64,000 bases of DNA from Candidatus Omnitrophota bacterium (GCA_028707125.1 JAQTUX010000002.1:144355-208354); one strand, 5' to 3'; counted from the stretch's first letter, positions 8,469-50,222 are shown. Program-made: numbers and translations. The notes: a model not told the origin generated them from the sequence alone.

Positions 8469-8481
8469 GGTCTTCCTCCCA

Positions 8482-33308: not shown

Positions 33309-34002
33309 TTTTTACCCTCGCTTGCCGTTTAAGCACCCCCGACTTGAAGATCGATTCCGCCATCCGGAAATCCTCTTCTTCGTCAATATCTATCGCCTCG
33401 ATCCTGTTCATTTTATACAGATACGGTTTCAAGCCGATCCTGCGGCCCTTATTTTCAAAACTGCTTCTGGAAAAAATGTAAAAGTTTGAATTCTCTTCAT
33501 ATACGGGAGAAAGATCCTGGGTGCGTATAAGCCTGCGGGGATCATGATTAAGAGGATGGAAATCATCATCATAGAACCTCGCCCTGTGCTCTGTCACGGA
33601 AAACAATGAATCATATCCGTCTTTTAAAGAGGCAAAGTATGTTTTCACAGCATCCTCTATTGTGGCCGGCATTAAAAGCGGGTTTGTGCTATGTGTCTGC
33701 AGGAAGTGCTCTCCCTCCAACAGCGAAATATCGTGGCCGATGATCTTATTCATGGAAACATGGTCGCCGCTAAGGCGGACAGGCCTGTCTATGAGCAGGA
33801 CTGAAGGATAGCCGCTTTTAATGAGCTGTTTGATCTTCCCGCTGTCTGTATCCACTACTATCGCCTCAACGCAGTTTACCTTCAACAGCGCGTCAAATAT
33901 CCTGTGGAACAGCGGCCTTCCGCAGAAATCGCGTATATTCTTATTCGGCACCCTCTCGCTGTGTCCCCTCATCGGGACCAACACCTTAATCTTCACAGCC
34001 AT
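33301..34002 (-). CDS. CMP-ulosonic-acid cytidylyltransferase, of the acylneuraminate cytidylyltransferase (NeuA/KdsB/CTP_transf_3) family. This is the second such gene in the locus.
   Basis: VLVPMRGHSERVPNKNIRDFCGRPL is the typical N-terminal motif of this family. 233 aa. Confidence 0.7.
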   Translation of the reverse strand: MAVKIKVLVPMRGHSERVPNKNIRDFCGRPLFHRIFDALLKVNCVEAIVVDTDSGKIKQLIKSGYPSVLLIDRPVRLSGDHVSMNKIIGHDISLLEGEHFLQTHSTNPLLMPATIEDAVKTYFASLKDGYDSLFSVTEHRARFYDDDFHPLNHDPRRLIRTQDLSPVYEENSNFYIFSRSSFENKGRRIGLKPYLYKMNRIEAIDIDEEEDFRMAESIFKSGVLKRQARVKNG

Positions 34003-35059
34003 GGAATCCCCTTTTCAATAATTTAAGGAGCCCGCTCTTTATTCTGGAGGCGGACCTTATCAGCCTGCCTGCCCTGCTTTTGTTCATGCTCAGGCGTTTT
34101 TCTTCCAACTGTTTCAGCGTACTTATGATAGTAAAATAATTATTTGAAAGATCGAGGCCGCAGACATGAGACGGCTGGCACCGGAACAGGCTGCGCACGT
34201 ATTCGTCACCCGCGATGAATTTAAAACCCAACGGCTCTATGACGGAACGCAGGGAAAGAAGGTTAAAATTATAATTATGGACAAAGGCCGAATAAACTAT
34301 ATAGTTATAATCGTAGTCCTTTAAGTAACAGACGCCGGGGACCTCGACATATAAATACCCGCCCTCTTTGACAAGGGGCTTGATCTTGTTAAACTCGCTT
34401 TTTATATCGCCGAAATGCTCAACCACATGGCTCAAGATCACGATATCCGCCTTTTTCCCGGCTAATGACTCTGCCAGCCCCTTATAAACATCAATGCCTC
34501 TGCTACGGGCCATCTGCGAGGCATCTTCCGAAGGTTCGCAACCGCATACATCTACAGCGATCCCGTCTTTTTCCAGCAGGTTCCTGACCTTGTCCAATAA
34601 AGCTCCCCTGCCGCAGCCGATCTCTATGATCTCAAGGCGCCTGCCCGCCTCTTTACGCGTAACGTATCTGTCCAGATATTCGTATATCTTTTCGGCAGAA
34701 TCGGGTTTGACCGTCATCAGGTCCCTTATTGACTCGCCCAATATCAGGTCATAGTAAACCTTCTCATAGAATTCCGGCAGGTCATTGAAAGAAAGCCGGG
34801 GTGATACCTGGATCAGGCCGCATTGCCTGCAGATCTTTGTCCCGAATGGCAGTACGAACCTGTCCTGCACGCTCAAGACCTCAAGGTCATCAGAGCCGCA
34901 GAGGCATTTCTTAACGTGCTCCAGGCGGTATTTACCGTCAAAGATATACTTCAACAATGTAAAATAGGCCCTGCGCCTTTTCGGGTCCAGCTTAAAGCCG
35001 TAATAAAAAGGAAATTCAACCGCTGCCTGTCCGGACGTTTTGTCTTTCATTGCCATCAT
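33986..35059 (-). CDS. Class I SAM-dependent methyltransferase with an N-terminal C4 zinc-ribbon.
   Basis: CLCGSDDL...CRQCGL, then motif I RRLEIIEIGCGRGALLD. I trimmed the start to the ATG at 35059, which forms an ATGA overlap with the TGA stop of the upstream gene. The ORF track extends it to 35119. Confidence 0.7.
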   Translation of the reverse strand: MMAMKDKTSGQAAVEFPFYYGFKLDPKRRRAYFTLLKYIFDGKYRLEHVKKCLCGSDDLEVLSVQDRFVLPFGTKICRQCGLIQVSPRLSFNDLPEFYEKVYYDLILGESIRDLMTVKPDSAEKIYEYLDRYVTRKEAGRRLEIIEIGCGRGALLDKVRNLLEKDGIAVDVCGCEPSEDASQMARSRGIDVYKGLAESLAGKKADIVILSHVVEHFGDIKSEFNKIKPLVKEGGYLYVEVPGVCYLKDYDYNYIVYSAFVHNYNFNLLSLRSVIEPLGFKFIAGDEYVRSLFRCQPSHVCGLDLSNNYFTIISTLKQLEEKRLSMNKSRAGRLIRSASRIKSGLLKLLKRGFHGCED

Positions 35060-36237
35060 ACCTGTTTCAGGCGATTTGCCAGTATCTGCCAAAGGGGCAG
35101 ATTTTCCGACCAATCGCACTTAAGAAATTGCTGCCGGTAATGCCGATAATGCGGCTGGCTGACCTTCAATTCGTTTTCCCAGTCGATCTTCGATTCCTTA
35201 TCTATATACACCGCCCTTTTACCGTGCAACTGGGCCAACACTTCAATAAACTTGCTGTCCTGCATGCCGTCGTACGCGAGAAAGACAACCGGCTTTAGAA
35301 AAAGATTTGCCAGGCTGACAGCGGTGCTGGATTGGGTCAACACCAATTTCGCTTCCCTTATCAGCTCTGCGGTCTTGCCCTTGATACACTTGCGCCCTTT
35401 ATAATAATCCGGCAGTTCATCGTAACGGGAACGCGGATGGGCCGCGATAACAACCTCGAGTTTCAAGTCCCTCTCTACCGCGCCAAAAAAATCGTCGAGA
35501 AGCCCGTAATACCTGTCTATATCATAATTGCTCTTCACGCCTTCATAAAAATAATTCCAGTCCAGCGCCGGACAGATGTCCAGAAATACCGCGATATCGC
35601 GCTCCCGCGATGTCTTTTTTGACTCCTCAAGATAAACGTCGTAATCAAGGTTGTGTCCCCAGACCAATTCCGTATTTTTACCCAGCGGCAGCCGATGCTT
35701 GTTGACCGAGCCTTCGCCGCCGGCCATAAAAAACCGCGCCGGTTTTACGCCGAACAATCCAAGCGGCAGCAGGGGCAGTATCAATCTCTTATAAAGCCCT
35801 GAAGGAGTATGCCGCGACAATGACTTTAATTTTCTCATAATGACGGAAGCGCGCCTATGCCCGTTGAGCCGGTCAATGTCCCTCACGTCCGGCATGGCGT
35901 TGAGCAGCGCCACGATATATTCCGCCTTTGCCCTGCTTATTACCCTGTATAGATCGAGCAGCTTGAATTGAAAGGTTATGGCGTCAAAGATCACGCTATC
36001 CTGATCCAGATCCAATAATTGGCCATATAATGTCTTCGCGTCGTAAAAGAACTTCGTCCCCTTAAAGTCAACGTAATCCGAGGCCTTGTATTGCTTAAAG
36101 AGCTCCGGATGCAAGAAAGGTGTAATATCCCAATACTCCACCTTAAAACCGTTATCTTCCAGCGTCTTTATGCCGTAACGCCGGAAATTCCATTCGTTCA
36201 GGTTCTGCCTGGCCAATATTATTATATTTTTTATCAT
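35056..36237 (-). CDS. Hypothetical protein, possibly a GT-B ulosonic-acid (sialyl/Kdo-type) transferase-like enzyme.
   Basis: 393 aa. It has an HP motif (AAHPRSRYDELPDYY) followed about 33 aa later by TQSSTA. This spacing resembles the HP and S motifs of bacterial sialyltransferase and KpsS-like enzymes. It has no strong family match otherwise. Confidence 0.35.
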   Translation of the reverse strand: MIKNIIILARQNLNEWNFRRYGIKTLEDNGFKVEYWDITPFLHPELFKQYKASDYVDFKGTKFFYDAKTLYGQLLDLDQDSVIFDAITFQFKLLDLYRVISRAKAEYIVALLNAMPDVRDIDRLNGHRRASVIMRKLKSLSRHTPSGLYKRLILPLLPLGLFGVKPARFFMAGGEGSVNKHRLPLGKNTELVWGHNLDYDVYLEESKKTSRERDIAVFLDICPALDWNYFYEGVKSNYDIDRYYGLLDDFFGAVERDLKLEVVIAAHPRSRYDELPDYYKGRKCIKGKTAELIREAKLVLTQSSTAVSLANLFLKPVVFLAYDGMQDSKFIEVLAQLHGKRAVYIDKESKIDWENELKVSQPHYRHYRQQFLKCDWSENLPLWQILANRLKQV

Positions 36238-36998
36238 TTAATCTTTTTTATCTTCTTGATCAGTTCTCTGCAGGTATGTCCCAGGAATAACGTATCAAGG
36301 CTGAATGCCAGGAACCTGTATCCTTCATCGATCTTCTCTGTAAGCAGCTCCGCCTGCGGAGGTATCAGGTGGAATCCGGCTGTCTTTTTCATATCCCTGG
36401 CGACCTTCATAATGCGCGCCAGGGCGGCCTTAACCCGCGGATGCTCAAACTCTCCAGGCCTGCCGATAGAACCTGAAAGGTCATAGGGTCCGACGATAAA
36501 CCCGTCCACGCCTTCAACCTTCAGTATTTCCTCCAGATTATCCACCGCCTTGATGTGCTCTATCTGCGCGATCACCACGCTGCCCTTATTAACCCAATTC
36601 TTATACTTCTCAAATCCCATCCCATACCCCTGAGCCCTGGCAAGGCCCACCCCTCTTCTTCCTTCCGGAGGGTATCTGACGGCGCTTACCGCCGCAACCG
36701 CGTCCTCTTTGCTGTTTACCATAGGGACGATCACGCCGTGAGAACCGGCATCCATAACTCGCTTGATAAGGACCGGGTTGTTTTCGCCCACCCTTACCAG
36801 AGGCAGGCAGCCGGACAATTCGATTATCTGGATAAGCGCCTGGGCCTGATCAAGTGTTATCGCGCTGTGCTCCATATCTACTGTCAACCAGTCAAAGCCC
36901 GCCCTGGCCATGATCTCCGCGATTGAAGCATGGCCCACGGTGATCCAGGAACCCACGGTAAGAAGCCCTTTTCTTAATCTCTCTTTTAGGTCTATCAT
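36234..36998 (-). CDS. HpcH/HpaI-family class II (metal-dependent) pyruvate aldolase.
   Basis: 254 aa with a TIM-barrel aldolase layout: LRVGENNPVLIKRVMDAGSHGVIVPMV...PEGRRGVG...VIAQIE. Confidence 0.75.
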   Translation of the reverse strand: MIDLKERLRKGLLTVGSWITVGHASIAEIMARAGFDWLTVDMEHSAITLDQAQALIQIIELSGCLPLVRVGENNPVLIKRVMDAGSHGVIVPMVNSKEDAVAAVSAVRYPPEGRRGVGLARAQGYGMGFEKYKNWVNKGSVVIAQIEHIKAVDNLEEILKVEGVDGFIVGPYDLSGSIGRPGEFEHPRVKAALARIMKVARDMKKTAGFHLIPPQAELLTEKIDEGYRFLAFSLDTLFLGHTCRELIKKIKKIK

Positions 36999-37015: not shown

Positions 37016-38569
37016 TTAATACCCCAGCTTGCTGCTCACGGCCTTAGTGGCCCTTGATATTAAAATCCGCACATCCTGTTTATTCATGCCAAAAATAAGG
37101 GGAAAATAATAAATAACGGCTAAAACTATCAGAGAATATAGAAAACCGGCGGATAAAAACCTGAGAATAACGGCTTCGCTGCCCTTCAACAATATTTTGT
37201 CTATACAGGCAGTCGCCAATACAGCGGCCAGAACAAATAACACGATACTCGCTATCTGATGCTCCAGATATTTCCAAAAATTTATCTTGATGAGTTTCAT
37301 ATTAAAGAACAGATAGGTATTGACTGTGATCAACTGTATCAATAATGTCTTAACGGCCAGGCCTGTGGCGCCGGCATCAACACCCCAGAGATGCCTGGGG
37401 GCGATCAAAAGATATGTGATCGGCAATCCGATCAACATGAATATTACGTCTATATTCCTGTGCAATTTAGTCCTTCCTGCCGCGAGGATGACAGAACTGC
37501 TTATCTGTCCGTAGGTCTGGTGTATGGGGGCAAAGGCCATGACCGTTACCGGGATCAACGCCTGGTAATATTTATCCCCCCCGATTATATATATTACTTT
37601 GGCCGCCTGTATGGCCAGGAAACAGGAAAAAAACGCGGTGATAGAATACATTAAGGGCACATACTTCCTGAAAAGCGAAGATATCTGCCCTAAATCTTTA
37701 TTTTCAAATCCGATGGCGAACTCCCTCATAAGCAGCGGCGTCATCGCCCCGACAAAAAGGAAACAGAGCGTGCCTATCTGATAGGCGAAGCCATAGAAAC
37801 CCTGTTGTATGCTGCCCCCGAAAACCTGCAATAACCATCTGTCTAATATGCCCACGGCTAAACCGACTATGGAAGTCATAAAAAGCGGATGACTGTAATG
37901 ATAAAACTCTTTTGAGTACTGTTTTAGTTTTAATGATCCGATCCTCCAGCCCTGCCTGAAAGAGTATCCGTTCGACCCCATGATCCAGATAAATACAGCG
38001 CCTATAAATATCAAGGTAAAATACTGATAATAAAAATAACTGCTCAAAGACAATTTGCCGGAAATATACAGAAGTATCAATAAAATAGCCCCTAAGAATT
38101 TCTGCACGATCCTCGCCTTCTCCGCGGGAACGGTCAGGCCGTAGGCATCCGTCATCTTATTGAATAAATTGACGGCCCAATTACAGATGCCCCATCCAGC
38201 GGCCAGATAGATATAGAATATTTTCTGCCCGGGCCAGAGATTAATATGCAGCGAAGTCAAATGGGCAAAGGCCACAAAAGCCAATGTGATCAAAGTGACG
38301 CATGCCATAAAATACCTGTAAAAGGCGGCCAGGCTGTGATCCTTCGGCCTTTGTGACAGCTTATTATAAAAACACATGGATGTGCCCATATCGAGAAAGC
38401 CGGTGATCTGGGAGAAAAAATTAGTCAAAAAGCTGAAGTTACCGTATAGTTTAGGGCCCAGGCCTCTCGGCGCAATAGCGGCGGTGACAAAACTCAAAAT
38501 AAATCCCGCGATATTGGTTGAAAGTTTATAAAAATATCTCTTATTTAATGAATCCATCTTTAAAATCAA
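37016..38569 (-). CDS. Wzx-like oligosaccharide/polysaccharide flippase (MOP superfamily, Polysacc_synt).
   Basis: 517 aa with about 12-14 predicted transmembrane helices. The N-terminus (KLSTNIAGFILSFVTAAIAPRGLGPKLYGNFSF) is typical of Wzx/RfbX. Confidence 0.7.
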   Translation of the reverse strand: MILKMDSLNKRYFYKLSTNIAGFILSFVTAAIAPRGLGPKLYGNFSFLTNFFSQITGFLDMGTSMCFYNKLSQRPKDHSLAAFYRYFMACVTLITLAFVAFAHLTSLHINLWPGQKIFYIYLAAGWGICNWAVNLFNKMTDAYGLTVPAEKARIVQKFLGAILLILLYISGKLSLSSYFYYQYFTLIFIGAVFIWIMGSNGYSFRQGWRIGSLKLKQYSKEFYHYSHPLFMTSIVGLAVGILDRWLLQVFGGSIQQGFYGFAYQIGTLCFLFVGAMTPLLMREFAIGFENKDLGQISSLFRKYVPLMYSITAFFSCFLAIQAAKVIYIIGGDKYYQALIPVTVMAFAPIHQTYGQISSSVILAAGRTKLHRNIDVIFMLIGLPITYLLIAPRHLWGVDAGATGLAVKTLLIQLITVNTYLFFNMKLIKINFWKYLEHQIASIVLFVLAAVLATACIDKILLKGSEAVILRFLSAGFLYSLIVLAVIYYFPLIFGMNKQDVRILISRATKAVSSKLGY

Positions 38570-39438
38570 AATTTAAAATGCGCCAACTTATCTTCCTCCG
38601 TAAGTTTATACGCTTCTAATCCTATGGTCGCCTCGCCCGGGCGAGGCAAAACATAAGCGACTACTTTATCAAGAAATCCCATACGCACTCCGGCGCGAAA
38701 CATTCGGTCCTGCAAGTCGGTATCGTTAACGCGATTCCAGTTTTTTCTCCAACAGTTAATATTGTATCTGAAAAACCTCAAATAAGAACGATATAGCCAC
38801 GTCTGGGTCCCGCCGATCCTTGGGTTCTCATTAGCGGCGTTATTGACCATCCTGTTGCCGCGGCGCTCTTCCACATAAGCGGCCGACACGAATTCATAAT
38901 CTCCTTCTCGGGCAAAACGCAGTAAGGCATCGAGGTGGTCGGCCGTCCACGTATCGTCATCATCTATACGGGCGATCCACCTGCCCCTGACGGACTCCAG
39001 CGCCTTATTGGCCGGCACAACAGGGCCGGCAAGCCAATGATTCTCGGCCGTAGGCGGGTATCTATACCGCCTTCGGGATAAATTATAGAACCGTATCCTG
39101 GGATCGTTGATCCTGGAAACCAGCTCTTCGGTATTATCCGTGCAACAGTCCCCGACAATTATGAATTCGAAATTCTTATATGTCTGGCTCAACACCGAAG
39201 ATACGGCCCTTTCCATAAGCAGGGAGCCGCGATTATAAGTGGGGACATAGACAGAAATAAGCGGATCCTCCTTAATAGATGCGTACAGGTTTCCGTACCG
39301 TATGCGGTCGATCCTCAGCCTTATCGGCTCGGCGAAGCCATAATACAGCGAATCCCTCATGCTGATCAACCTGTCTTCAACGCCCCGTTTGCGCTTAACA
39401 GGCCTTATACCGGAATTATTTTTCTCTCTTACGATCAT
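38566..39438 (-). CDS. Family-2 glycosyltransferase.
   Basis: ISVYVPTYNRGSLL...IIVGDCCTDNT...ARIDDDD. Confidence 0.75.
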   Translation of the reverse strand: MIVREKNNSGIRPVKRKRGVEDRLISMRDSLYYGFAEPIRLRIDRIRYGNLYASIKEDPLISVYVPTYNRGSLLMERAVSSVLSQTYKNFEFIIVGDCCTDNTEELVSRINDPRIRFYNLSRRRYRYPPTAENHWLAGPVVPANKALESVRGRWIARIDDDDTWTADHLDALLRFAREGDYEFVSAAYVEERRGNRMVNNAANENPRIGGTQTWLYRSYLRFFRYNINCWRKNWNRVNDTDLQDRMFRAGVRMGFLDKVVAYVLPRPGEATIGLEAYKLTEEDKLAHFKF

Positions 39439-40315
39439 TTATGTTAACCAGTTGGTTATTCTCGTCTAAACACAGCTCCGGAGTGCACTGCTTGAAATCC
39501 CTATGGCTCCACGGGGTCCAGCCTTTTTTAACGGCCTTTTGGATATCCTCTTCGGTGATCTTTTTGTCAAAGATATTAACCTTACCTTGCAGATATTTTG
39601 GCGCCTTGGCCTTTTCCATCCTTAAGGCGTTGCTTTTCGATACCATATCGGATGCCGCGCCGCTGCTCGGCCGGGGCATGGGGATGGCAGCGCCGCACAT
39701 CGGGCAATGCCGTTTAACCTGATCTACGAATTCTTCCGGATTCTTATCCCACCACCTCTTCTCAACAGGATAGCCCCCAGGGCCGTCAAACAGATGATCC
39801 ATTGCCGCGGCTACTTCGCAGAAGAACCCTCCCTTGGGGGTAATGGAAGCGGACCACCTGTATTGGATCCAGCAGCTTCCGATAAGCCTCCACATAAGCG
39901 CCTTATCTTCTATTATATCATCCGCGGCTATCAACAGCGGCTGATGCGCCCCTGCCGGGCTGCTGTGGTCGTTATATACTATGTTCTCCGGACAAAATGT
40001 ATCGTAAATCTTGTCTTCATACTCTTTCCACTTGTATCCATTGCTCCAAAGCTGCCTGTGTCCTTTATCCGGTATCATTTCCTTAAAAATATCGCATATT
40101 TCGGGAAATTTCGGATGCAGGGTGGGCTCGCCGCCCATCAGCCCTATATTGCCCTCATATCCCTCAAGCGAATCTATCGCCTTTCTGACCATGTCCAGAT
40201 CCATGAAAAATGGTTTGCTATGGTGGCCTACGAACCTGGTGCAATTCGCGCACTGCATATTACAGGCATTTGTTACTTCAATTTGTATGGTTTTAACTCT
40301 GTAAATAGGAATCAT
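39416..40315 (-). CDS. Radical SAM enzyme without a B12 domain, with an extra C-terminal cysteine cluster.
   Basis: CNMQCANC (CxxxCxxC) near the N-terminus, GGEPTLHP glycine-rich SAM motif, and a C-terminal CPMCG. 299 aa. Confidence 0.7.
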   Translation of the reverse strand: MIPIYRVKTIQIEVTNACNMQCANCTRFVGHHSKPFFMDLDMVRKAIDSLEGYEGNIGLMGGEPTLHPKFPEICDIFKEMIPDKGHRQLWSNGYKWKEYEDKIYDTFCPENIVYNDHSSPAGAHQPLLIAADDIIEDKALMWRLIGSCWIQYRWSASITPKGGFFCEVAAAMDHLFDGPGGYPVEKRWWDKNPEEFVDQVKRHCPMCGAAIPMPRPSSGAASDMVSKSNALRMEKAKAPKYLQGKVNIFDKKITEEDIQKAVKKGWTPWSHRDFKQCTPELCLDENNQLVNINDRKREK

Positions 40316-40347
40316 GCCCGCCCCTTTTTGGTTGTGCCGCCATCATC

Positions 40348-41559
40348 TCAATCGTCTACGCCGCCGCCCCAGACCGTATGCCTTAGCCCCCACTCATTGT
40401 TGACCTTGGTCCATACATGAGGCGATAACGACCTGTAAAAATCGACTACTTCGTGAAATTCTTCTTCGGTTATACCGAGATATCTCAAAAACCATTGAAA
40501 ATACTTCTTCGGGAAAGCCCCGTCGTAACGCTTGACAAGGGCAACCCCTTCCTCGCGGGTAATATGGCCGTCCCTGATCTCATGCGCGGCATCCGAGGTG
40601 GCCCTGGCGATACCGAACTTCATGTAAGCAAGATAAAAATGGAAACCGTCCTGCTTATCATCCAGGCTGGCATACTTGGAATAGGTCCCTTCTGAATGTT
40701 CGGGGTTAGGCTTAAATCCGGTATTCTCTACACAATAATAATAATTTTCCTGCGGGACCCATTTCTTGTAAAAGGAAAACCAATGCATCTGCGCCCCTAT
40801 CTTGCTCAACTCTTCCAGTTCCGGCGGCCTATACAAGCGGAATGAATCAGCGTTTATCTCCTCCTTCTTGAAGACCCCCGCCTCTAAGCCATGCCGGATC
40901 AGATCGTCTATGCCGGAACCCTTATAATAAAGTTCTTGCCAGTCCTCAGGCCTCTCATAGGCATTCTTGATATTTTTGCTGGACCCGCCGTATTCGATCT
41001 CTCCGCTTTCGCCATAAAACATCAAAGGGATCTTAAACCTTACCGCCATCTGAAACGCATATGCCTTTTGCCCATAGGCAAAGGGCTCCCACGCGTCACC
41101 CAGAAGCTCGAAGGACAATCTGGATAATTTTCTATGTAAAACACCATCGGGAAAGCATAATAAATTATCAAAACCGGAATCTTTAAAACTCAAATAATTC
41201 TGCCAACCGATATCCGTGTACTCAAAAGGGGCCCAGGTCACGGTCAAAGGATGCATGCCGTATTTATATTTCAGTTGGTGCGCGACGTAACCGGAATCCT
41301 TGCCTCCGCTGCCGGGGACAATACAATCATAGCTCCCGTCCTTTGAACGGTACCTGTTCAGCAGATCAACGAGCATCTTCTCTCTTTCTTTCCAATCTAT
41401 CGTGTTATGTTTCAAGTACGCATAACGACAGGCGCTGCAAACGCCATTCTCGTCAAAAGTGATCCTCGGCCTCTGATTCGAAACAACGCAGCTTTTGCAG
41501 AATCTGGTCTCTTTTGGAAGTCTGCCCAGCTGTTTATCTAACGTTTTTCTGAATAACAT
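40348..41559 (-). CDS. N-acetyl-sugar amidotransferase (PP-loop ATPase, WbuX/PseA-like) that makes an acetimidoyl (acetamidino) group.
   Basis: N-terminal zinc-ribbon (CKSC...CSAC) and PP-loop SGGKDS. The next two genes downstream are a HisH/HisF-like pair, as in the wbuXYZ arrangement. Confidence 0.7.
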   Translation of the reverse strand: MLFRKTLDKQLGRLPKETRFCKSCVVSNQRPRITFDENGVCSACRYAYLKHNTIDWKEREKMLVDLLNRYRSKDGSYDCIVPGSGGKDSGYVAHQLKYKYGMHPLTVTWAPFEYTDIGWQNYLSFKDSGFDNLLCFPDGVLHRKLSRLSFELLGDAWEPFAYGQKAYAFQMAVRFKIPLMFYGESGEIEYGGSSKNIKNAYERPEDWQELYYKGSGIDDLIRHGLEAGVFKKEEINADSFRLYRPPELEELSKIGAQMHWFSFYKKWVPQENYYYCVENTGFKPNPEHSEGTYSKYASLDDKQDGFHFYLAYMKFGIARATSDAAHEIRDGHITREEGVALVKRYDGAFPKKYFQWFLRYLGITEEEFHEVVDFYRSLSPHVWTKVNNEWGLRHTVWGGGVDD

Positions 41560-41589
41560 GCCCTGCCTCCAATGTGCCGGATAAAAAAA

Positions 41590-42234
41590 CTACATCTTAA
41601 GGAAATTCTCAAATATTTTTAAACCGCCTCTGGCGCTCTTTTCCGGATGGAACTGGCATCCCCATATATTATCTTTGCAAAGTACGCTGCAGAATCTATC
41701 CTTGCCATATTCCGACTCCGCTATTATGTTGTTATCTTCATTCGGCGAACAGATAAAAGAATGCACGAAATAGAAATGGCTCCCGTCGGCAACATCCCTT
41801 AAAATAGACCTGCCCGGATTCAAAGCGCCCTCCTTAAAATAAATTTCTCTCCAGCCAACGTGAGGGATCTTAAACGAATTATCCTTTTCCGGTTTCTCCA
41901 GGATCCGGACTCTTCCCTTTATTAAATTCAGGCCGTTGCAAAGACCGAATTCATCGCTTTCGCTCATAAGCAGCTGCATACCTAAACAGATACCCAATAA
42001 TGGCCTGCCGCTTCCAGAAAATTCACAGATCGCATCGCTTAAGGACCTGTCTTTTAACTCGCGCATCCCCTCACGAAAGGCGCCCACTCCCGGCAATATC
42101 AATCTTTGCGCGGAGCGGACTTTCACAGGGTCGCCGGTGATCTCGGTTTCGCCTCCGATATAGGCCATCGCCCTTTCAATACTGAAGAGATTGCCCATTC
42201 CATAATCAACTATGGTGGCCTTATTATTGTTCAT
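41590..42234 (-). CDS. hisH: Imidazole-glycerol-phosphate-synthase HisH-like glutamine amidotransferase subunit (WbuY-like).
   Basis: Class I glutaminase triad region LLGICLGMQLL...HVGW...CQFHPEKS. 214 aa. Confidence 0.8.
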   Translation of the reverse strand: MNNNKATIVDYGMGNLFSIERAMAYIGGETEITGDPVKVRSAQRLILPGVGAFREGMRELKDRSLSDAICEFSGSGRPLLGICLGMQLLMSESDEFGLCNGLNLIKGRVRILEKPEKDNSFKIPHVGWREIYFKEGALNPGRSILRDVADGSHFYFVHSFICSPNEDNNIIAESEYGKDRFCSVLCKDNIWGCQFHPEKSARGGLKIFENFLKM

Positions 42235-43118
42235 TATGGATTAACCGCTCCCTGCAGCATGCACCTGCAACTGACCCCTGCTTCGCTCAGTCTCTTTTTC
42301 ACTTCTGCTATAGAATCGGGCTTGATCCTGTTAGGCATAAAATTCAAACTGCCTCTGCTCCTCTTTATAAACTCTATATTGCCTTCTTCTTTAAAATCAA
42401 CGGGGTCGATATCCCGCTCCATATATTGATAGTGGAAAATAGACGCCGCGCTTACAGCATCGGCATGCCCATGCCTTATGGCCTCCAGGATATGCTCAAA
42501 TTTACCGCATCCTCCGCAGGCAATGACCGGTATGGGCGACTCTTTCGCTATCGGGCTTACCAGACCTAAATCATACCCTAAGCCGGTGCCTTCATTATCA
42601 AGGGAAGTCAAAAGGATCTCTCCCGCGCCCAAGGCGACTACTTCCTTTGCCCAATTAAACACCTCTTTGCCGCTCGCCTCTCTTCCGTTGTCGGTCATGG
42701 CTATATATGCATTATTGATCAGTTTTGCCTGAATAGATACCACGATACACTGAGAACCGAACGTCTCGGCCGCTTCCCGGATAAAATCCGGGTTATGGAT
42801 GGCCGCCGTATTGATAGCGACTTTATCGGCTCCGGAGCGCAATATCCTCTTGATATCCTCAATCGACCTTATGCCGCCGCCTACTGTCAGAGGAATAAAG
42901 ATATTTTTTGCGGTCTTCTCTACGATCTCTAAAAGATTATTCCTTCCGTAAAGGCTGGCAACCGCGTCTATGTAGATCAACTCATCCGCTCCGTCCAGAT
43001 AATACTTACAGGCGAAATCCCACGGCTTTCCCAAAACGCGCAGGCCTTCCAGATGAATGCCCTTGACTAAGTTAGGGCCCTTGATATCCAGTCTCGGTAT
43101 AATCCTCACATTAGCCAT
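42234..43118 (-). CDS. hisF: HisF-like cyclase subunit (WbuZ-like) with a C-terminal extension.
   Basis: (beta/alpha)8 HisF motifs: RIIPRLDIKGPNLVKG...TVGGGIRS...GADKV...GAGEILLTS. Its stop shares one nucleotide with the hisH-like start. Confidence 0.8.
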   Translation of the reverse strand: MANVRIIPRLDIKGPNLVKGIHLEGLRVLGKPWDFACKYYLDGADELIYIDAVASLYGRNNLLEIVEKTAKNIFIPLTVGGGIRSIEDIKRILRSGADKVAINTAAIHNPDFIREAAETFGSQCIVVSIQAKLINNAYIAMTDNGREASGKEVFNWAKEVVALGAGEILLTSLDNEGTGLGYDLGLVSPIAKESPIPVIACGGCGKFEHILEAIRHGHADAVSAASIFHYQYMERDIDPVDFKEEGNIEFIKRSRGSLNFMPNRIKPDSIAEVKKRLSEAGVSCRCMLQGAVNP

Positions 43119-43119
43119 A

Positions 43120-43860
43120 TCAGACCGCGGTCCACCCTCCGTCTACGACAAGGTTGTGCCCCGTTACATAGCCCGACGCGTCGGATGCCAGGTATATTGC
43201 CGCTCCCGCTATATCAACCGCCTTTGCCATCCTTCCCAGAGGGGTCTTGTCTGAATATCTTTTCACAAAGGCATCCGCCTGCCTGTCGCGCACACCGCCC
43301 GGAGAAATACAATTAACCCTGACCCCATGCCCGCCGTAGTAGGAAGCGAGGTATCTCGTGAAAGCGATTATTCCGCCCTTAATAGCGGAATAGGCTCCGG
43401 GGCAGGTCATTTTGGTATTCTTATAAATAGAGAAATCCGGCCCGACCATGCCATAAATAGAAGCAAGGTTAATAATGGACCCGCCTCCCTTCTTTTTCAT
43501 ATACTCGGCGGCATTCCGGCAGCAGATAAAATACCCGTTAAGGTGCGTATCGATATTCTTTCTCCAGGACGATACCGGCACATCCTCAAACTTCAAGGCC
43601 CAATCGCCGGTCCTGGGATAAGCGCTGTTGACCCATATATCCATACGGCCATATTTCTTATCCACAAACTTGATCAAAGAAGAGACCGACCGCTCATTGG
43701 CGATATCCACATGCCGGCCGGCGTTTTTATTGATATCGGCGGCCACAACAGAGGCGCCAAATGCCGACAGGCCGCGCGCTATTTCCTTTCCAATCAACCC
43801 CGCGCCCCCCGCTACAACCGCTACCTTGCCTTTCAGGCAGAAAAGATCATCGTATTTCAT
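43120..43860 (-). CDS. Short-chain dehydrogenase/reductase (classical SDR), possibly a PtmA-like accessory enzyme of the nonulosonic acid module.
   Basis: KVAVVAGGAGLIGKEIA glycine-rich motif and YSAIK (YxxxK). Confidence 0.75.
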   Translation of the reverse strand: MKYDDLFCLKGKVAVVAGGAGLIGKEIARGLSAFGASVVAADINKNAGRHVDIANERSVSSLIKFVDKKYGRMDIWVNSAYPRTGDWALKFEDVPVSSWRKNIDTHLNGYFICCRNAAEYMKKKGGGSIINLASIYGMVGPDFSIYKNTKMTCPGAYSAIKGGIIAFTRYLASYYGGHGVRVNCISPGGVRDRQADAFVKRYSDKTPLGRMAKAVDIAGAAIYLASDASGYVTGHNLVVDGGWTAV

Positions 43861-44581
43861 TTTTCCACAGTCCTTCCTTGATCAGGAACTCAATAAATTT
43901 AAAATCCATCTCGCTGTCTATGTCGTATCGTGACAACGCGCCCATAATATAGATCTCCGTCCTGCCGGCAAAAGGCATGGAATGCCTGGTATCAAGCAGA
44001 AAATCCCTGGAGTAAAAATATATCGAGGCATTCATATCAAATACCTCAGGAGCCGCCTGCCTGCCGGAAACCTTCCTGGACAGGGCCTTACAACGCCTGA
44101 CCGATCCGTCCCCTTTCCTTTCAACCATATTAAAATACGGATTCCTGTGCGCCCTGACCACGCTGAAAAGTATCGCGGGCTTACTTCTAAGAAATAACTT
44201 CAGGCATTCATCCAGGTCTTTGATCCTCCTGATCGGAGACGTAACATCCAGATCCACGACAATATCGTATCGTTCCTTGAATATCTTTTCGCTCTGGACA
44301 AGCGCGTGCCTTATGCTCAAAAGCTTGGGGGCGCTATCCGCGGCCAACTTATCCGGCCGCATAAAAGGCACCTGCGCCCCAAAATCCTTCGCGATATCAG
44401 ATATCTTTTCTGAGTCGGTAGACACGACAACCCGCCCAGCCCCGCCCCATCTCAATGCCTGCTCTATCGTATAGGCGATCAGCGGTTTACCCATTAAAGG
44501 GCGGATATTCTTATCCTTGAGCCCTTTGGACCCGCCTCGCGCGCAAATCGTGCATAATATATTGGGCCTGCCTGCCGCCAT
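43847..44581 (-). CDS. legF: CMP-nonulosonic acid synthetase (acylneuraminate cytidylyltransferase family, NeuA/LegF-like).
   Basis: ILCTICARGGSKGLKDKNIRPLMGKPLIAYTI. I moved the start to the ATG at 44581 (MAAGRPN...), which sits just downstream of the upstream gene's stop at 44584 and follows a GGAG/AGGGG RBS. The ORF track extends it to 44632. Confidence 0.75.
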   Translation of the reverse strand: MAAGRPNILCTICARGGSKGLKDKNIRPLMGKPLIAYTIEQALRWGGAGRVVVSTDSEKISDIAKDFGAQVPFMRPDKLAADSAPKLLSIRHALVQSEKIFKERYDIVVDLDVTSPIRRIKDLDECLKLFLRSKPAILFSVVRAHRNPYFNMVERKGDGSVRRCKALSRKVSGRQAAPEVFDMNASIYFYSRDFLLDTRHSMPFAGRTEIYIMGALSRYDIDSEMDFKFIEFLIKEGLWKNEIR

Positions 44582-44583
44582 AT

Positions 44584-45507
44584 CTACACCCCTAAAACTC
44601 CTAACACATCCAACGCCTGATCCAGAGAGCACAGCCTGGGCTTCAACCGGCGGTCAAGGCCCAGGAATACCCTGAGCATACTGATGTAGGATCCATCAAT
44701 CGCATCATTCCTCAGGACTGTCTTTCCCGATATCTCCAGCCGGCCGGTGATAAGGTCATAATAAAGATTCCTGGAGTTATCGCAGATTATCTTTAAATAC
44801 CTCTCAGCCGGCTTTCTTATATAATCCAGAGTTATATCCACAATAAATTCACGGTAATCTAAGATCAATTTAAAGGTATCCGGCGCGTGGATATCCAGGC
44901 CGCTGATCTTAGCCCTGTATAAAAACCTTTTCTTGAAGGCGCTGCCAAATAGCCATAACGCGTAGTCGATCTCGTGGGAAAGGTCCAGATCAACGCCTCC
45001 CCCCAGGCGCCTGTGCGCGCTGTAAGAATCCCCTGTTTCCCTTCCCGGCCGCCATTCCCTCAAGTCCTGCCCGGCCGCTATTTCAACGATCTTGATGCTA
45101 CGCCTTTGCCCTGCTATAAAATCGGCGATCATGTCAAATGCCCTGAGAAACCTCAGATTGTAAGCGACAAATACCCCGACGCCTGAGCCGGCTGCCAGCC
45201 TTTTTATCTCTCTGCCTTTTAAGGCCGAGGATTCAACCGGCTTCTCAATGAGCACGCCCTTCAGCCGCTTCAAATTACGCAGGCAACTTTTAAAATCAGC
45301 CAAATGCCTGGACGTGACGGAAGAAATAACGCAATATTTGATATCTCTGGATGTGAGGCCCTTGATGCTGTCAACAAACCTGGCGCCTGATCCATCGGGA
45401 TGCCTCGTCAGCACGTAAGGATTGATCCCCAGCGACATTAGATTCCCGACATGACGCTTCCCTGCAGAGCCGTAACCGGCCACTAAAACTTCAACGCGCC
45501 TATTCAC
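44584..45507 (-). CDS. Gfo/Idh/MocA-family NAD(P)-dependent oxidoreductase (PtmF/WbpB-like accessory sugar oxidoreductase).
   Basis: N-terminal Rossmann VLVAGYGSAGKRHV...EKP. 307 aa. Confidence 0.7.
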   Translation of the reverse strand: MNRRVEVLVAGYGSAGKRHVGNLMSLGINPYVLTRHPDGSGARFVDSIKGLTSRDIKYCVISSVTSRHLADFKSCLRNLKRLKGVLIEKPVESSALKGREIKRLAAGSGVGVFVAYNLRFLRAFDMIADFIAGQRRSIKIVEIAAGQDLREWRPGRETGDSYSAHRRLGGGVDLDLSHEIDYALWLFGSAFKKRFLYRAKISGLDIHAPDTFKLILDYREFIVDITLDYIRKPAERYLKIICDNSRNLYYDLITGRLEISGKTVLRNDAIDGSYISMLRVFLGLDRRLKPRLCSLDQALDVLGVLGV

Positions 45508-46495
45508 AAATATCCTCTTTCAACAATTCCCTTATTTCCCCGGCCGCCATGACCTTGCCTTCATTGGATCTATATACGATACGGCTGCCTTTATCGCTGT
45601 GTTTGCCGTGATTTAGCGTGGAAAGAATGTACATATCATCCAGTTCGTTCACTATCGCCGCCTCATCGTCATTCATCAACTCCTCATGCATCTTCTCCCC
45701 GTCTCTCCTGCCGATGAAATCAATCTTGACCTCTTCCTTACCGCGCCCGTATTTAGGGGCGAATTCCTCAATGACCGCTTTAGCCAGGTCCTGAATAAGC
45801 AGGGCGGGCATTTTCAGTATGAATGTCTCTCCCCCTTTTGAGATGTGCGCTGCCTTAAGCACCAGCTCGGTGGCCTTATCAATGCTCATCACGAATCTGG
45901 TCATTGACCCGTCGGTAACAGTGACCGGGCCTCCTTTCTTTACCTGCTCCTTGAACAAAGGCAGGACAGACCCCCGGGAATTCAAGACGTTGCCGAATCT
46001 CACGCAGGAAAAAACCGTCCGCCTTTCCCCCTTGTATAAATTAGCCGATACTGTTAACCTTTCAGCAAGCAATTTAGACGCGCCCAGGACGTTGATCGGG
46101 TTTACCGCCTTATCCGTGCTGATAGTGATGAATCTATCGATCTTTTCATCCATAGCGGCTTCTATCAGATTCTTGGTCCCTAAGACATTTGTCTGAACCG
46201 CCTCAAAGGGGTTAAGTTCGCATAACGGCACGTGCTTGAGCGCTGCAGAGTGGAATACTATATCTATGCCTTCAACAGCCCTTCTCAGCCGCTCCTTATC
46301 CCTGATGTCCCCTATCAGAAGCCGTATCTTATCGCGTGGCAGCTTACGCCCAAGGTGGAACAGCTCTGTCTCATCCGTATCCATGATCCTTACGGTATTT
46401 GGGTTGTACTCCAGCAGCTTCTTGACAAGCGCGCTGCCTATGGAGCCGGCTCCGCCGGTCACAAGGATCATCTTATTTTCATAAAAATTCTTCAT
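45500..46495 (-). CDS. legB: NDP-N-acetylhexosamine 4,6-dehydratase (PseB/LegB/CapD short-form family).
   Basis: MILVTGGAGSIGSALV...DKAVNPINVLGASKLLAERL. 331 aa. It begins the nonulosonic acid module. Confidence 0.75.
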   Translation of the reverse strand: MKNFYENKMILVTGGAGSIGSALVKKLLEYNPNTVRIMDTDETELFHLGRKLPRDKIRLLIGDIRDKERLRRAVEGIDIVFHSAALKHVPLCELNPFEAVQTNVLGTKNLIEAAMDEKIDRFITISTDKAVNPINVLGASKLLAERLTVSANLYKGERRTVFSCVRFGNVLNSRGSVLPLFKEQVKKGGPVTVTDGSMTRFVMSIDKATELVLKAAHISKGGETFILKMPALLIQDLAKAVIEEFAPKYGRGKEEVKIDFIGRRDGEKMHEELMNDDEAAIVNELDDMYILSTLNHGKHSDKGSRIVYRSNEGKVMAAGEIRELLKEDICE

Positions 46496-47622
46496 TTATT
46501 CCTCCTGAAAAATGTCTTTATTGTTTTTACAATATGATCCATTTCCTCGCAGGATAATCCCGGATGTATGGGCAGCGACAAGACCTGCCTTGATATCCTC
46601 TCGGTAACCGGCAGCCGGGCCGCCTGTTTTGAACGGCCCGCGTAAAAGCGGCTACGGTGCACAGGATCAAAATATACCTTTGTGGCGATACCTTTTGAAG
46701 CAAGGTATTCCCTCAGCTGCTCCCTGCGCCTTTTGACTATCACGGAGTACAGTTGATATACGTTAAAATGGCCCTTCGGCGGCTCAAAGACAGCGATCTC
46801 CTCGATCTGTCCTAATCCGCCGGACATATACTCGGCCTTCTGCCGCCTCAGCGCGATAATCTTAGCGGCCCTTCTCAACTGGGACATGCCGACTGCCGCC
46901 GCGATGCTTGACATCCTGAAATTATAACCCAGGGAAACGTAGTCAAACGACTCTGAAGAAGCAAAATAATTGCCCGCCCCGGACCTGCCGTGCGACCTTA
47001 TAAGTTTCAATTTCTCATATATCCTAGGAGAATCTGTCAGAGCCGCGCCGCCTTCGCCCGTGGTGATTATTTTATTCTGGCAGAAACTAAGCATGGCGCA
47101 ATCGCCGAAGGCGCCGGCCATTTTACCGCCTGCCATCGCGCCGAATGATTCGGCGGCGTCCTCTATAAGGAACAGGCCGCGCCTCTTTGATATCTTTTTT
47201 AATTCCTCTATGCCGCAAGGGCAGCCGCCATAATGAACGGGGATTATCGCCCTGGTCCTGGGAGTGATCCTCTTCTTGACATCCTCCGGATCCAGGCCAA
47301 AGGTTTCCTCTTCTATATCCGCGAATACCGGCCTGGCCCCGACAAAAAGCGGGGCGTTGGCTGTAGCAATGAATGTAAAAGAAGGGACGATAACCTCATC
47401 ACCCTCCCCGATCCCATAAGCCAATAAAGCGGCGTGCAGAGCTGAAGTGCCGGAATTGAAGGCCAGGCAATACTTAACGCCGATGTACCGGGCCAGCTCA
47501 TTCTCAAACGCCCTTATAGCCGGCCCCTCTGCCCAGTACATCCCTGACCTGATAACAGAGGCAGCAGCCCTTACATCGTCTTCATTCCAATCTATCTTAA
47601 ATAAAGGCACCTTCTGCTTCAT
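46492..47622 (-). CDS. legC: DegT-family aminotransferase of the nonulosonic acid pathway (LegC/PseC-like).
   Basis: DegT motifs IVPSFTFIATANA and DAAESFGA. It is adjacent to the dehydratase and the NeuB/NeuC homologues. Confidence 0.8.
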   Translation of the reverse strand: MKQKVPLFKIDWNEDDVRAAASVIRSGMYWAEGPAIRAFENELARYIGVKYCLAFNSGTSALHAALLAYGIGEGDEVIVPSFTFIATANAPLFVGARPVFADIEEETFGLDPEDVKKRITPRTRAIIPVHYGGCPCGIEELKKISKRRGLFLIEDAAESFGAMAGGKMAGAFGDCAMLSFCQNKIITTGEGGAALTDSPRIYEKLKLIRSHGRSGAGNYFASSESFDYVSLGYNFRMSSIAAAVGMSQLRRAAKIIALRRQKAEYMSGGLGQIEEIAVFEPPKGHFNVYQLYSVIVKRRREQLREYLASKGIATKVYFDPVHRSRFYAGRSKQAARLPVTERISRQVLSLPIHPGLSCEEMDHIVKTIKTFFRRNK

Positions 47623-47626
47623 ATCC

Positions 47627-48067
47627 CTACCTTGAAAATGTTTCTATTTCTTTCCTGGTCAATTTCCTCGCTACCTTTGCCGGAACCCCGTAGGCCAGCA
47701 CATTGGCCGGTATATCTTTATTTACAAAACTGAAGGCGCCGATGACCGAATTCTCACCGATCTTTACCGCCGGCATTATCACGCTGTGGCTGCCGATCCT
47801 GCAATTCCTGCTCAAGGTAACCGGCCCCTGTTTATTGTCAATAGTAGAAACGGAGTATACGGAGCAATGAGACCCTATCTGGACATAATCCTCTATGGCC
47901 ACGCCCTTCTTGGCGTTAATATACGTATAGGCCCCTATATCGGTCTTGTAACCCAACTTAAAATTGCCCTTATGCTGAACCAACCAGTTGAATTTCGTAG
48001 GCCTGCCTTCTTCTATTTTCGGGTATTTCCAATCCTTGAATCTTGCGCCCATGTCGCTCCTCATCAA
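47627..48067 (-). CDS. Hexapeptide-repeat (left-handed beta-helix) acyl/acetyltransferase.
   Basis: 146 aa with isoleucine-patch repeats (VQIGSHCSVYSV...CRIGSHSVIMPAVKIGENSVIGAFSFV). Confidence 0.7.
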   Translation of the reverse strand: MMRSDMGARFKDWKYPKIEEGRPTKFNWLVQHKGNFKLGYKTDIGAYTYINAKKGVAIEDYVQIGSHCSVYSVSTIDNKQGPVTLSRNCRIGSHSVIMPAVKIGENSVIGAFSFVNKDIPANVLAYGVPAKVARKLTRKEIETFSR

Positions 48068-49209: not shown

Positions 49210-50222
49210 ATTAAATCATGAAACCTTATCAAGGAATCCTTCTTAAGGCCCCTTCTGGCTTCTCTGCCTATTATTCTATCTAAGTATTTTGGGGCGACTC
49301 CGATGCCCGGCCTTTTAATATCGATCGCGTCATTCGTTATCTTGGCGCCCTTGGGTATATCTATTTTCGCCACTATGCTTTTCCTGACATGTCTTTTGAT
49401 CCTTTTCTCATCCCTGGTGGGCGCCTTGACCCCGTTACCGATGGCCTTCTCGGTATTCCGTATCCCATCCACCAAGCTCTTTAACTGGTCCGGCTCAAGG
49501 CTCATCATGTGGTCCGGCCCTTTCATATTCCTGTCTAAGGTAAAATGTTTCTCTATTACTGTGGCGCCCAGGGCAACTGCCGCGATAGAGATCTCGATGC
49601 CTTCCGTATGGTCGGAATATCCCACGTTGACACCCAGGGCGTCTCTTATGGTAAGCATGGCCAGAAGATTGACATCCCTATAGGCAGCCGGATAAGCCGT
49701 TGTGCAGTGCAAAAAGGTTATATTGTTTTTAGAAACACCTGAACGCACCAGAATATTTAACGCCTGTCTGGCCTCGTCCAGGTCTGCCATGCCGGTAGAG
49801 ACAATGACCCTTTTCCCTATACCTCCTATCTTTCTTAGATAGGGAATATTCGTTATTTCTCCCGAAGGTATCTTGAATATCCTCAGCCCCAGCCCGTTAA
49901 GCAGGTCTATGCTCTCCAAATCGAACGGGCTTGATAAAAACGCTATCCGTTTCTGCCGGCAATGACGGATAAGTTCTCTGTGGGCATCCAGGCCAAGCTC
50001 CAGCTTTTCTAACATCTGAAGCTGCGATTCATTTCTGGCTGTGGCCCGGAGCTGATACCCTGCCTTCAGAGCGAGTCTGCTGGCCAGCCGGCGCGCCCGG
50101 AATGTCTGAAATTTGACCGCGTCGGCTCCGGCATAAGAAGCGGCGTCTATCAGCCGTTTGGCCAATTTAACGCTTCCGTTGTGGTTAACCCCTGCCTCTG
50201 CTATTATAAAAACCTTACTCAT
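49206..50222 (-). CDS. legI: Nonulosonic acid synthase (NeuB family; N-acetylneuraminate/legionaminate synthase).
   Basis: [26 protein letters not shown]...KFQTF...SSPFD motifs. 338 aa. Confidence 0.85.
   Translation of the reverse strand: MSKVFIIAEAGVNHNGSVKLAKRLIDAASYAGADAVKFQTFRARRLASRLALKAGYQLRATARNESQLQMLEKLELGLDAHRELIRHCRQKRIAFLSSPFDLESIDLLNGLGLRIFKIPSGEITNIPYLRKIGGIGKRVIVSTGMADLDEARQALNILVRSGVSKNNITFLHCTTAYPAAYRDVNLLAMLTIRDALGVNVGYSDHTEGIEISIAAVALGATVIEKHFTLDRNMKGPDHMMSLEPDQLKSLVDGIRNTEKAIGNGVKAPTRDEKRIKRHVRKSIVAKIDIPKGAKITNDAIDIKRPGIGVAPKYLDRIIGREARRGLKKDSLIRFHDLI

Follow-up and report, generated by a model that had tools for sequence, protein, structure and literature searches.

A small radical SAM protein coupled to a glycosyltransferase, beside a putative acetamidino-sugar trio in an Omnitrophota nonulosonate locus

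This analysis concerns a 64-kb stretch of DNA from Candidatus Omnitrophota bacterium (GCA_028707125.1, JAQTUX010000002.1:144355-208354), referred to below as the window, in which a nonulosonic-acid module is followed by an amidotransferase trio, a small radical S-adenosylmethionine (SAM) protein, and a GT2 glycosyltransferase. The 58 large open reading frames (ORFs) of the window were scanned with the hidden Markov models (HMMs) of Pfam and NCBIfam. Every sizeable gene lies on the minus strand. In transcription order, the genes of main concern are:

43120-50222, minus strand: nonulosonic-acid module, legionaminic-acid (Leg) type (TIGR03568 and TIGR03569 above cut-offs)
42234-43118, minus strand: HisF paralogue, 294 aa (PF00977)
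41590-42234, minus strand: HisH-type class I glutaminase, 214 aa (TIGR01855, PF00117)
40348-41559, minus strand: N-acetyl sugar amidotransferase (NASAT) of the WbuX family, 403 aa (TIGR03573)
39416-40315, minus strand: radical SAM protein with a predicted Twitch domain, 299 aa (PF04055, N-terminal part only)
38566-39438, minus strand: GT2 glycosyltransferase, 290 aa (PF00535)
35056-36237, minus strand: conserved protein, 393 aa (no Pfam or NCBIfam match)

The HisF gene starts 1 nt from the nonulosonate module (43118 versus 43120). From HisF through HisH, NASAT, and the radical SAM gene to GT2, the genes first overlap by 1 nt, are then separated by 30 nt and by 32 nt, and finally overlap by 23 nt. 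The region is proposed to hold two functional units in one operon-like run: the amidotransferase trio and the radical SAM/GT2 pair. An earlier note on this DNA had described the trio and the radical SAM gene; the four tightly packed ORFs were found on the minus strand at their coordinates, with all the motifs it quoted (SGGKDS, CNMQCANC, GGEP, and CPMCG) and the zinc motif CKSC...GVCSAC, and the 23-nt overlap is exact. The gene order in the note was reversed: the nonulosonate module is transcribed first, then the trio, and then the radical SAM gene, which the note had placed before the trio.

The radical SAM protein carries the CX3CX2C motif (CNMQCANC) at residues 18-25 (window 40241-40264), GGEP at residues 61-64, and CPMCG at residues 204-208 (window 39692-39706). 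Its PF04055 match (34.4 bits; gathering threshold 29.5) covers only the N-terminal ~100 residues, and its best NCBIfam match reached 38 bits against a cut-off of 380. The family alignment showed seven invariant cysteines (C18, C22, and C25, together with C148, C166, C204, and C207), an invariant G61-G62-E63-P64, and a conserved C-terminal patch of W266, P268, and R272. It does not fit the SPASM enzymes, whose seven-cysteine motif (CX9-15GX4C...CX2CX5CX3C...C) binds two auxiliary clusters: only four C-terminal cysteines are conserved here, and PF13186 does not match. Nor does it fit class B, the B12-binding radical SAM enzymes with an N-terminal cobalamin-binding domain, as PF02310 does not match and the CX3CX2C motif stands at residue 18. 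The protein is thus a non-B12 enzyme outside any curated family, in keeping with the note, which gave no obvious family for it; PF04055 matches eight of the window's 58 large ORFs and PF02310 seven, which also confirms the note's total of eight radical SAM enzymes.

Sequence comparison aligns the protein to solved structures over its cluster-binding N-terminus only. An AlphaFold2 (AF2) model of the protein is confident (predicted local distance difference test, pLDDT, 92; predicted template modelling score, pTM, 0.90). It places in order C148, strands 156-159 and 162-164, C166, and a helix at 193-206 that holds C204 and C207; C148 and C166 flank a β-hairpin (window 39818-39874). In the Twitch topology of BtrN, cysteines stand before and after a β-hairpin, and two more follow the next helix (PMC6231123). 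Because the hairpin-flanking cysteines are joined by a later CX2C, the auxiliary cluster is predicted to be fully ligated by four cysteines. As modelled, the protein is a Twitch-domain enzyme with a single predicted auxiliary cluster. The Foldseek search of the PDB ranked SpeY first (E 2e-9, template modelling (TM) score 0.52), followed by an N-terminal-only match to GDGT-MAS and then BtrN; weaker matches were MoaA, SkfB, viperin, and EpeE. The predicted fold points to Twitch dehydrogenase or epimerase chemistry. The earlier note had suggested sugar tailoring by a dehydratase, epimerase, or deaminase: the fold is in favour of a dehydrogenase or epimerase rather than a DesII-type deaminase or an AprD4-type dehydratase.

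SpeY (spectinomycin, PDB 7WZX) and BtrN (butirosin, PDB 4M7T) share with this protein a length of ~250-300 aa, the N-terminal CX3CX2C, a partial barrel, the cysteine-flanked β-hairpin, and the later CX2C. Unlike them, the protein has ~90 further conserved C-terminal residues, which include the invariant W266/P268/R272. Identity is 15-16%, and the sequences resemble each other only over the first ~100 residues. The genomic settings also differ, being glycoconjugate loci and phage genomes rather than aminoglycoside clusters, and the enzyme here is coupled or fused to glycosyltransferases.

The family is large and widely distributed. More than 1,000 homologues with 56-72% identity were found in Omnitrophota, Patescibacteria, Nitrospirota, SAR324, Victivallaceae, Alphaproteobacteria, and DPANN archaea. 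The profile search of 50%-identity representatives gave 3,941 matches at E < 1e-3 and 344 at E < 1e-30. Relatives are encoded in 197 species genomes and on 98 IMG/VR contigs. Library and literature searches found no curated family, solved member, or publication for a module of this radical SAM protein and a glycosyltransferase.

The GT2 protein whose gene overlaps the radical SAM gene matches PF00535 (E 1e-21), with its DXD motif, DDDD, at residues 159-162 (window 38953-38964). Its model (AF2 pLDDT 89) showed a long N-terminal helix and an ordinary GT-A fold, nearest to SpsA, RmlT, TarP, and the heparosan/chondroitin synthases. The subfamily is 45-74% identical across phyla. The pairing was followed through a comparison set of 80 genome loci that carry relatives of the radical SAM protein, 28 of them with nonulosonate genes. 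An orthologue of the GT2 (45-69% identity) was found in 32 of the 80, at no more than 400 nt from the radical SAM gene in 25. Short overlaps of the two reading frames are seen repeatedly (-14, -11, -4, and -1 nt). Within the 28 nonulosonate loci, GT2 is present in 26, mostly next to the radical SAM gene or overlapping it, and WbuX in 22. The radical SAM-GT2 pair stands without WbuX within 10 kb in 11 loci; WbuX stands without GT2 in two only, both on contigs that end inside the locus.

Outside nonulosonate loci, where 52 of the 80 genome loci and most viral members are found, the adjoining gene is usually a glycosyltransferase of another family. Glyco_trans_1_2 adjoins the radical SAM gene in nine loci, including that of the complete Velamenicoccus archaeovorus genome. 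Other neighbours are GT2, GT9, a GT92/GT2_4-like protein, and, in Scalindua and Desulfosarcina, a GT41 with tetratricopeptide repeats (TPR-GT41). Many members of the family are natural fusions, for example radical SAM-GT2, GT2-radical SAM, radical SAM-GT2-GT2, radical SAM-DUF4422-GT8, and radical SAM-TPR proteins, and in viruses radical SAM-GT2 and radical SAM-Glyco_transf_7C. Judged by adjacency, overlap, and fusion, the constant partner of the radical SAM family is a glycosyltransferase, and not the amidotransferase trio. The earlier note had left the protein as a tailoring enzyme on its own; these comparative data link it to the overlapping GT2 and, across the family, to glycosyltransferases. 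In the anammox bacterium Candidatus Scalindua (L076, 10001-13228; also L082, L083, and L090), a 1,075-aa protein joins the radical SAM domain to a long array of TPRs, with TPR-GT41 (OGT-like) genes on its flanks; this arrangement suggests a link to protein O-glycosylation.

The reverse test, started from the GT2 subfamily, found a radical SAM gene in 23 of 40 well-flanked metagenomic loci, a proportion that rules out an obligate pairing. Among the GT2 loci with a full 5 kb on each side, the gene was present in seven of 14. Judged by gene linkage, the dependence runs one way: the radical SAM protein needs a glycosyltransferase, and the GT2 can do without the radical SAM protein. The absence of the radical SAM gene from about half of the GT2 loci fits an optional tailoring step after glycosyl transfer. 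The 393-aa protein is a possible third component of the radical SAM-GT2 module. It was placed by tblastn directly after GT2 in five loci (L172, L173, L176, L177, and L024; 25-39% identity) and near GT2 in four (L021, L031, L059, and L081).

The settings of the pair suggest what it may act on. In the Thermodesulfovibrio locus (L251/L252, DYIN01000003.1, 1-18956), the order is DegT-PglD-NeuB-NeuC-PtmE-GFO-CMP synthetase-SDR-NASAT-HisH-HisF-radical SAM-GT2. The cassette abuts Maf, flagellin, FlaG, FliD, and FliS, and is predicted to be a flagellin glycosylation island; Maf or flagellin genes also occur in three to four further loci. In Patescibacteria and others, the cassette comes together with genes for KpsC/KpsS-like Capsule_synth proteins and for an ABC transporter. 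The window instead carries a Wzx-like flippase and PMT_2 proteins, without Maf or flagellin. The radical SAM-GT2 pair keeps 50-70% identity across the capsule-type, Wzx-type, and flagellin settings, so that its probable target is the sugar unit and not the final carrier.

Viral copies form several groups. Four IMG/VR contigs (L091, L104, L105, and L106) carry the radical SAM gene with WbuX, GT2, NeuB, and NeuC; they represent either nonulosonate cassettes carried by phages or pieces of cellular genomes wrongly classed as viral. On 11 IMG/VR contigs (L092-L103), the radical SAM gene lies directly upstream of the major head protein gene (Phage_capsid_2, phrog_3437); in a Kiloniellaceae genome (L072, 804-1694), it is likewise immediately upstream of a phage major head protein gene. 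One of these contigs (L100, radical SAM gene at 8001-8894) holds a T7-like block of terminase, acetyltransferase, portal, phrog_3742, radical SAM, head protein, and tail tubular proteins. In 23 other viral loci (L107-L163; for example L108, 7297-8004), a conserved ~235-aa protein with an invariant D-x-D-like segment, DADALIHPD, is encoded directly upstream of the radical SAM gene. The reading of this protein as a diverged GT2 is not supported by the statistics (Pfam E 0.008; hhalign against the GT2 profile, 1.7% probability; no PDB match). Some of these 23 loci have an SU10-type adaptor protein downstream. The tblastn search found the radical SAM gene in no deposited phage genome, and PHROGs has no dedicated family for it, with matches to the N-terminal motif only.

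The amidotransferase trio can be assigned more closely. The NASAT protein scores 345.6 bits on TIGR03573 (WbuX; cut-off 203.2; E 3.7e-103) over model positions 2-344 of 344, and its residues 14-396 match the Legionella pneumophila LpNASAT structure (PDB 8WEX, E 6e-107). The PP-loop SGGKDS lies at residues 84-89 (window 41293-41310), and the zinc tetracysteine CKSC-x16-GVCSAC at residues 21-44 (window 41428-41499; C21, C24, C41, and C44). The NASAT family is defined by the PP-loop SGGXDS and the zinc-binding CXXCXn[GN]XCXXC; in the proposed chemistry, ATP is converted to AMP and pyrophosphate, and the N-acetyl group is attacked by ammonia (PMC10607449). The HisH protein passes TIGR01855 (198.9 bits; cut-off 105.4; E 7.4e-59) and PF00117. 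It has C83 within GICLG (window 41980-41994), and H196 and E198 within FHPE (window 41641-41652), which we take, from established knowledge of HisH, to be the Cys-His-Glu triad.

The HisF paralogue matches PF00977 (E 1.7e-63), misses the hisF cut-off (TIGR00735; 275.1 versus 294.55 bits), and is also below the AglZ/HisF2 cut-off (NF038364; 196.4 versus 310 bits). Its class is ambiguous by HMM alone, and the residue pattern is informative. In an alignment to HisF structures (T. maritima numbering), Q stands in place of the catalytic D130 (SIQAK, window 42723-42737); D11 is kept, and so are R5, E46, K99, and E167 of the ammonia gate. In each of the 21 WbuX-linked HisF paralogues extracted from related loci, a catalytic aspartate is missing, with L or N for D11 or else E or Q for D130, and the four gate residues are retained. 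Two subtypes track the gene order: D11L occurs with WbuX-HisH-HisF, and D130E/Q, which includes the window, with HisF-HisH-WbuX. The ~35-aa C-terminal insertion of the window protein is common to its subfamily, which shows 50-68% identity through residue 285. The paralogue is linked with a WbuX-family amidotransferase and HisH in at least 20 loci, and in four (L041, L042, L056, and L062), HisF and HisH are fused, with HisF N-terminal (526-530 aa). A candidate second HisH/HisF pair in the window at 26659-28184, with the same lengths (214 and 294 aa), is actually a HAD hydrolase and an SDR.

By its motifs and neighbours, the trio is a further example of the known acetamidino machinery. With the WbuX/WbuY/WbuZ-type systems (LpNASAT, WbpG, PseA, and Campylobacter Cj1324), it shares SGGKDS, the zinc tetracysteine, the full-length similarity to 8WEX, the adjoining glutaminase and HisF-type barrel, and the siting by nonulosonate genes as in the Legionella lipopolysaccharide (LPS) clusters. 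The archaeal counterpart of WbuXYZ is AglXYZ. The window trio differs from both in that its HisF paralogue is below the WbuZ and AglZ cut-offs, has Q130, and carries the ~35-aa C-terminal insertion. Unlike the known WbuXYZ-type members, its host is an uncultivated Omnitrophota bacterium.

The nonulosonate module contains a NeuC-type hydrolysing 2-epimerase (TIGR03568; 418.9 versus cut-off 235.9 bits) and a NeuB-type synthase (TIGR03569; 468.2 versus cut-off 399.65 bits). It also holds a PseB/PglF-like 4,6-dehydratase, a DegT aminotransferase, a CMP-sugar synthetase, a PtmA-like SDR, and a GFO oxidoreductase, all below equivalog cut-offs. Going by the established pathways, a 4,6-dehydratase and an aminotransferase found with NeuC/NeuB rather than PseG/PseI fit a legionaminic-acid-type 5,7-diamino nonulosonate. 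The Legionella LPS/O-antigen clusters join HisF/HisH and NASAT with nonulosonate genes, and their polymer is built of a 5-acetamidino-7-acetamido nonulosonate. The likely product here is an acetamidino legionaminic-acid-like (Leg5Am-type) sugar, whose stereochemistry, amidine position, and stage of modification are not readable from the gene sequences. The earlier note had suggested a 5-N-acetimidoyl-legionaminic acid derivative: the Leg-type product agrees with the NeuB/NeuC-type module and with the recurrent cassette, and the specific derivative may be one form of it. A 570-aa protein (50219-51931), encoded between NeuB and a second DegT aminotransferase (51916-53031), has no family match.

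The closest known arrangement for the module is the Campylobacter ptm/leg locus for CMP-legionaminic flagellin modification, which likewise has NeuB/NeuC-type enzymes, a CMP-sugar synthetase, a PtmA-like SDR, a PtmF-like GFO, and an amidotransferase. Unlike that locus, the window has no Maf, flagellin, or PglD/LegH-like acetyltransferase, and its dehydratase is PseB/PglF-like and not LegB-like. We know of no counterpart of the radical SAM-GT2 pair in the Campylobacter locus.

From these family memberships, motifs, the predicted fold, and the gene linkage and fusions, a two-part mechanism can be proposed, in which the substrate, the amidine position, and the radical SAM reaction are inferred. 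HisH would hydrolyse glutamine, and the ammonia would pass through the HisF-type barrel to NASAT; with its gate kept and one cyclase catalytic residue lost, the barrel may serve as an ammonia channel. NASAT, with ATP, would adenylate the N-acetyl (acetamido) oxygen on a Leg-type nonulosonate, the product of the upstream NeuB/NeuC-type module, or on a nucleotide-sugar precursor. Ammonia would then displace the activated oxygen to give the acetamidino group. GT2 would add a sugar from a nucleoside diphosphate (NDP)-sugar donor. The Twitch enzyme, with a SAM-binding [4Fe-4S] cluster and an auxiliary cluster, might abstract a hydrogen from a carbon of the residue that GT2 has added. Most probably, and in line with SpeY and BtrN, a secondary alcohol would become a ketone, with the second electron taken by the auxiliary cluster; alternatively, a hydrogen might be returned to the opposite face to give an epimer. 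This explanation as a whole, with an amidine trio and a radical SAM enzyme that tailors a sugar handled by GT2, is held with modest confidence. The broader proposal is more tentative, and might well fail: that the 299-aa protein defines a large class of glycosyltransferase-coupled Twitch enzymes which oxidise or epimerise glycoconjugate sugars at an unactivated carbon, have spread horizontally across bacteria, DPANN archaea, and phages, and occur in legionaminic-acid cassettes, flagellin glycosylation islands, and phage head-gene blocks.

Several observations weigh against this explanation. The HisF paralogue does not reach the WbuZ cut-off (TIGR03572; 268.1 versus 299.7 bits), and the amidine site could be N5 or N7, on the nonulosonate or on a hexose precursor. 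BLAST and phmmer found no PglD/LegH-like N-acetyltransferase among the 58 large ORFs of the window, unlike related cassettes, which do hold a PglD-like acetyltransferase; the N-acyl groups of the nonulosonate may therefore differ from the diacetyl form. The fold resembles that of SpeY moderately (TM 0.52, 16% identity), and the reactions of Twitch enzymes are varied; for this family, the putative reaction is read from fold and linkage. The neighbour of the radical SAM gene in Desulfovibrionaceae is a second radical SAM gene, not a glycosyltransferase gene, and the T7-like viral contigs have the radical SAM gene by the major head protein gene without a recognisable glycosyltransferase. In the Desulfovibrionaceae loci (L063-L075; L063, 10888-12093), the small radical SAM gene is followed by one for a ~400-aa radical SAM protein with a 4-nt overlap; the tblastn match there spans ~1,150 nt for 256 query residues and runs into the following gene. 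Finally, the partners of the family belong to unrelated families and folds (GT2, GT8/DUF4422, GT9, GT41, and Glyco_trans_1_2), which a shared sugar donor would explain simply.

This last point leads to the alternative that the radical SAM enzyme acts before the glycosyltransferase, on a nucleotide sugar such as a UDP-hexose or UDP-HexNAc, and supplies an unusual, possibly unstable donor such as a keto or epimerised sugar. The 45-70% identity of the enzyme across phyla would be expected for a conserved small-molecule substrate, and the weaker fold matches include the nucleotide-binding MoaA and viperin. However, about half of the well-flanked GT2 loci have no radical SAM gene within 5 kb, which would be odd for a donor-dependent transferase, and the substrates of SpeY and BtrN, the closest in fold, are cyclitols, glycosylated or free, and not nucleotide sugars. 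This alternative is possible but rather unlikely. It is less probable still that the enzyme belongs to the nonulosonate pathway, acting on the Leg-type sugar or on the acetamidino group, with GT2 as an unrelated neighbour. The radical SAM gene does often follow the trio directly in nonulosonate loci, where the trio was found in 22 of the 28; but 11 radical SAM-GT2 loci have no WbuX, both loci with WbuX and no GT2 are truncated contigs, and 52 of the 80 genome loci as well as most viral members lie outside nonulosonate loci. Moreover, the fusions join the enzyme to glycosyltransferases and never to nonulosonate enzymes.

Modification of a protein, in the manner of anSME or a peptide maturase, would prepare or alter the residue to which the partner glycosyltransferase attaches its sugar, for example on flagellin or a phage head protein. 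The weak N-terminal HMM matches are to peptide or cofactor maturases, TPR-GT41 protein glycosyltransferases are among the partners, the Thermodesulfovibrio cassette adjoins Maf and flagellin, and viral copies adjoin the major head protein gene. Yet the radical SAM protein lacks both an RRE and a peptide-binding domain, no gene for a short precursor adjoins its own, its full-length fold is closest to the small-molecule Twitch dehydrogenases, and it stays 50-70% identical where the final acceptors clearly differ (capsule-type, Wzx-type, and flagellin). We regard a protein substrate as improbable. As for the trio, a genuine imidazole glycerol phosphate synthase that lies here by chance is hardly credible. 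The HisF-like protein does score a little better with the hisF model than with the WbuZ model (275 versus 268 bits), and HisH passes the hisH model; but both HisF-type scores are below their cut-offs, and the catalytic D130 is Q. The genes are set between a TIGR03573 amidotransferase and the nonulosonate module with 1-nt spacing, and the arrangement recurs in many phyla. The window holds no further His_biosynth paralogue, and every flanking gene is a glycan gene, which favours the WbuY/WbuZ type. The earlier assignment of the trio to WbuX/HisH/HisF-type acetamidino machinery, rather than to histidine biosynthesis, is thus borne out, with the TIGR03573 cut-off passed in the HMM check it had called for, both NASAT motifs, the 8WEX match, the D130Q replacement in HisF, and the glycan gene surroundings.

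Other genes of the window were noted beside this region. Seven paralogous B12-binding radical SAM proteins are encoded on the minus strand at 4338-5810, 9152-10729, 16085-17473, 17445-18980, 24578-26047, 31782-33308, and 53901-55439. They share 23-32% pairwise identity, with PF02310 in all and a CX3CX2C motif near residue 200-240. Their best NCBIfam matches are to P-/C-methyltransferases and BchE-type proteins, all far below cut-off. Seven such genes in 64 kb is an unusually high density for a polysaccharide locus. The stretch 33301-36998 (minus strand) encodes an HpcH/HpaI-type class II aldolase (36234-36998) and a second cytidylyltransferase, CTP_transf_3 (33301-34002), together with two methyltransferases and with a B12 radical SAM gene nearby. 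These genes could provide a second route to a keto-deoxy (ulosonic) acid by way of the aldolase, separate from that of the NeuB-type synthase. Between the nonulosonate module and one of the B12 radical SAM genes, there is a gene for a protein like the MarR-family EPS-associated regulators (53081-53704, minus strand; TIGR04176, 72.8 bits, below the cut-off of 88), which is a possible regulator of the locus.

In summary, the trio is one more case of a known way to make sialic-acid-like sugars that bear an amidine and a positive charge, this time in an uncultivated Omnitrophota bacterium. Greater weight falls on the radical SAM-glycosyltransferase pair, a conserved and mobile two-gene module with a wide spread, natural fusions, and a phage head-gene context. 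NCBI lists the Thermodesulfovibrio GT2 as a multispecies protein, and this genus may offer a cultivable carrier. If the enzyme does oxidise or epimerise a glycan sugar by radical chemistry, this would be an oxygen-independent tailoring of surface, flagellin, and possibly phage-virion glycans. It would represent a glycan chemistry that was previously undescribed, and might provide a handle for predicting unusual sugars from genomes.

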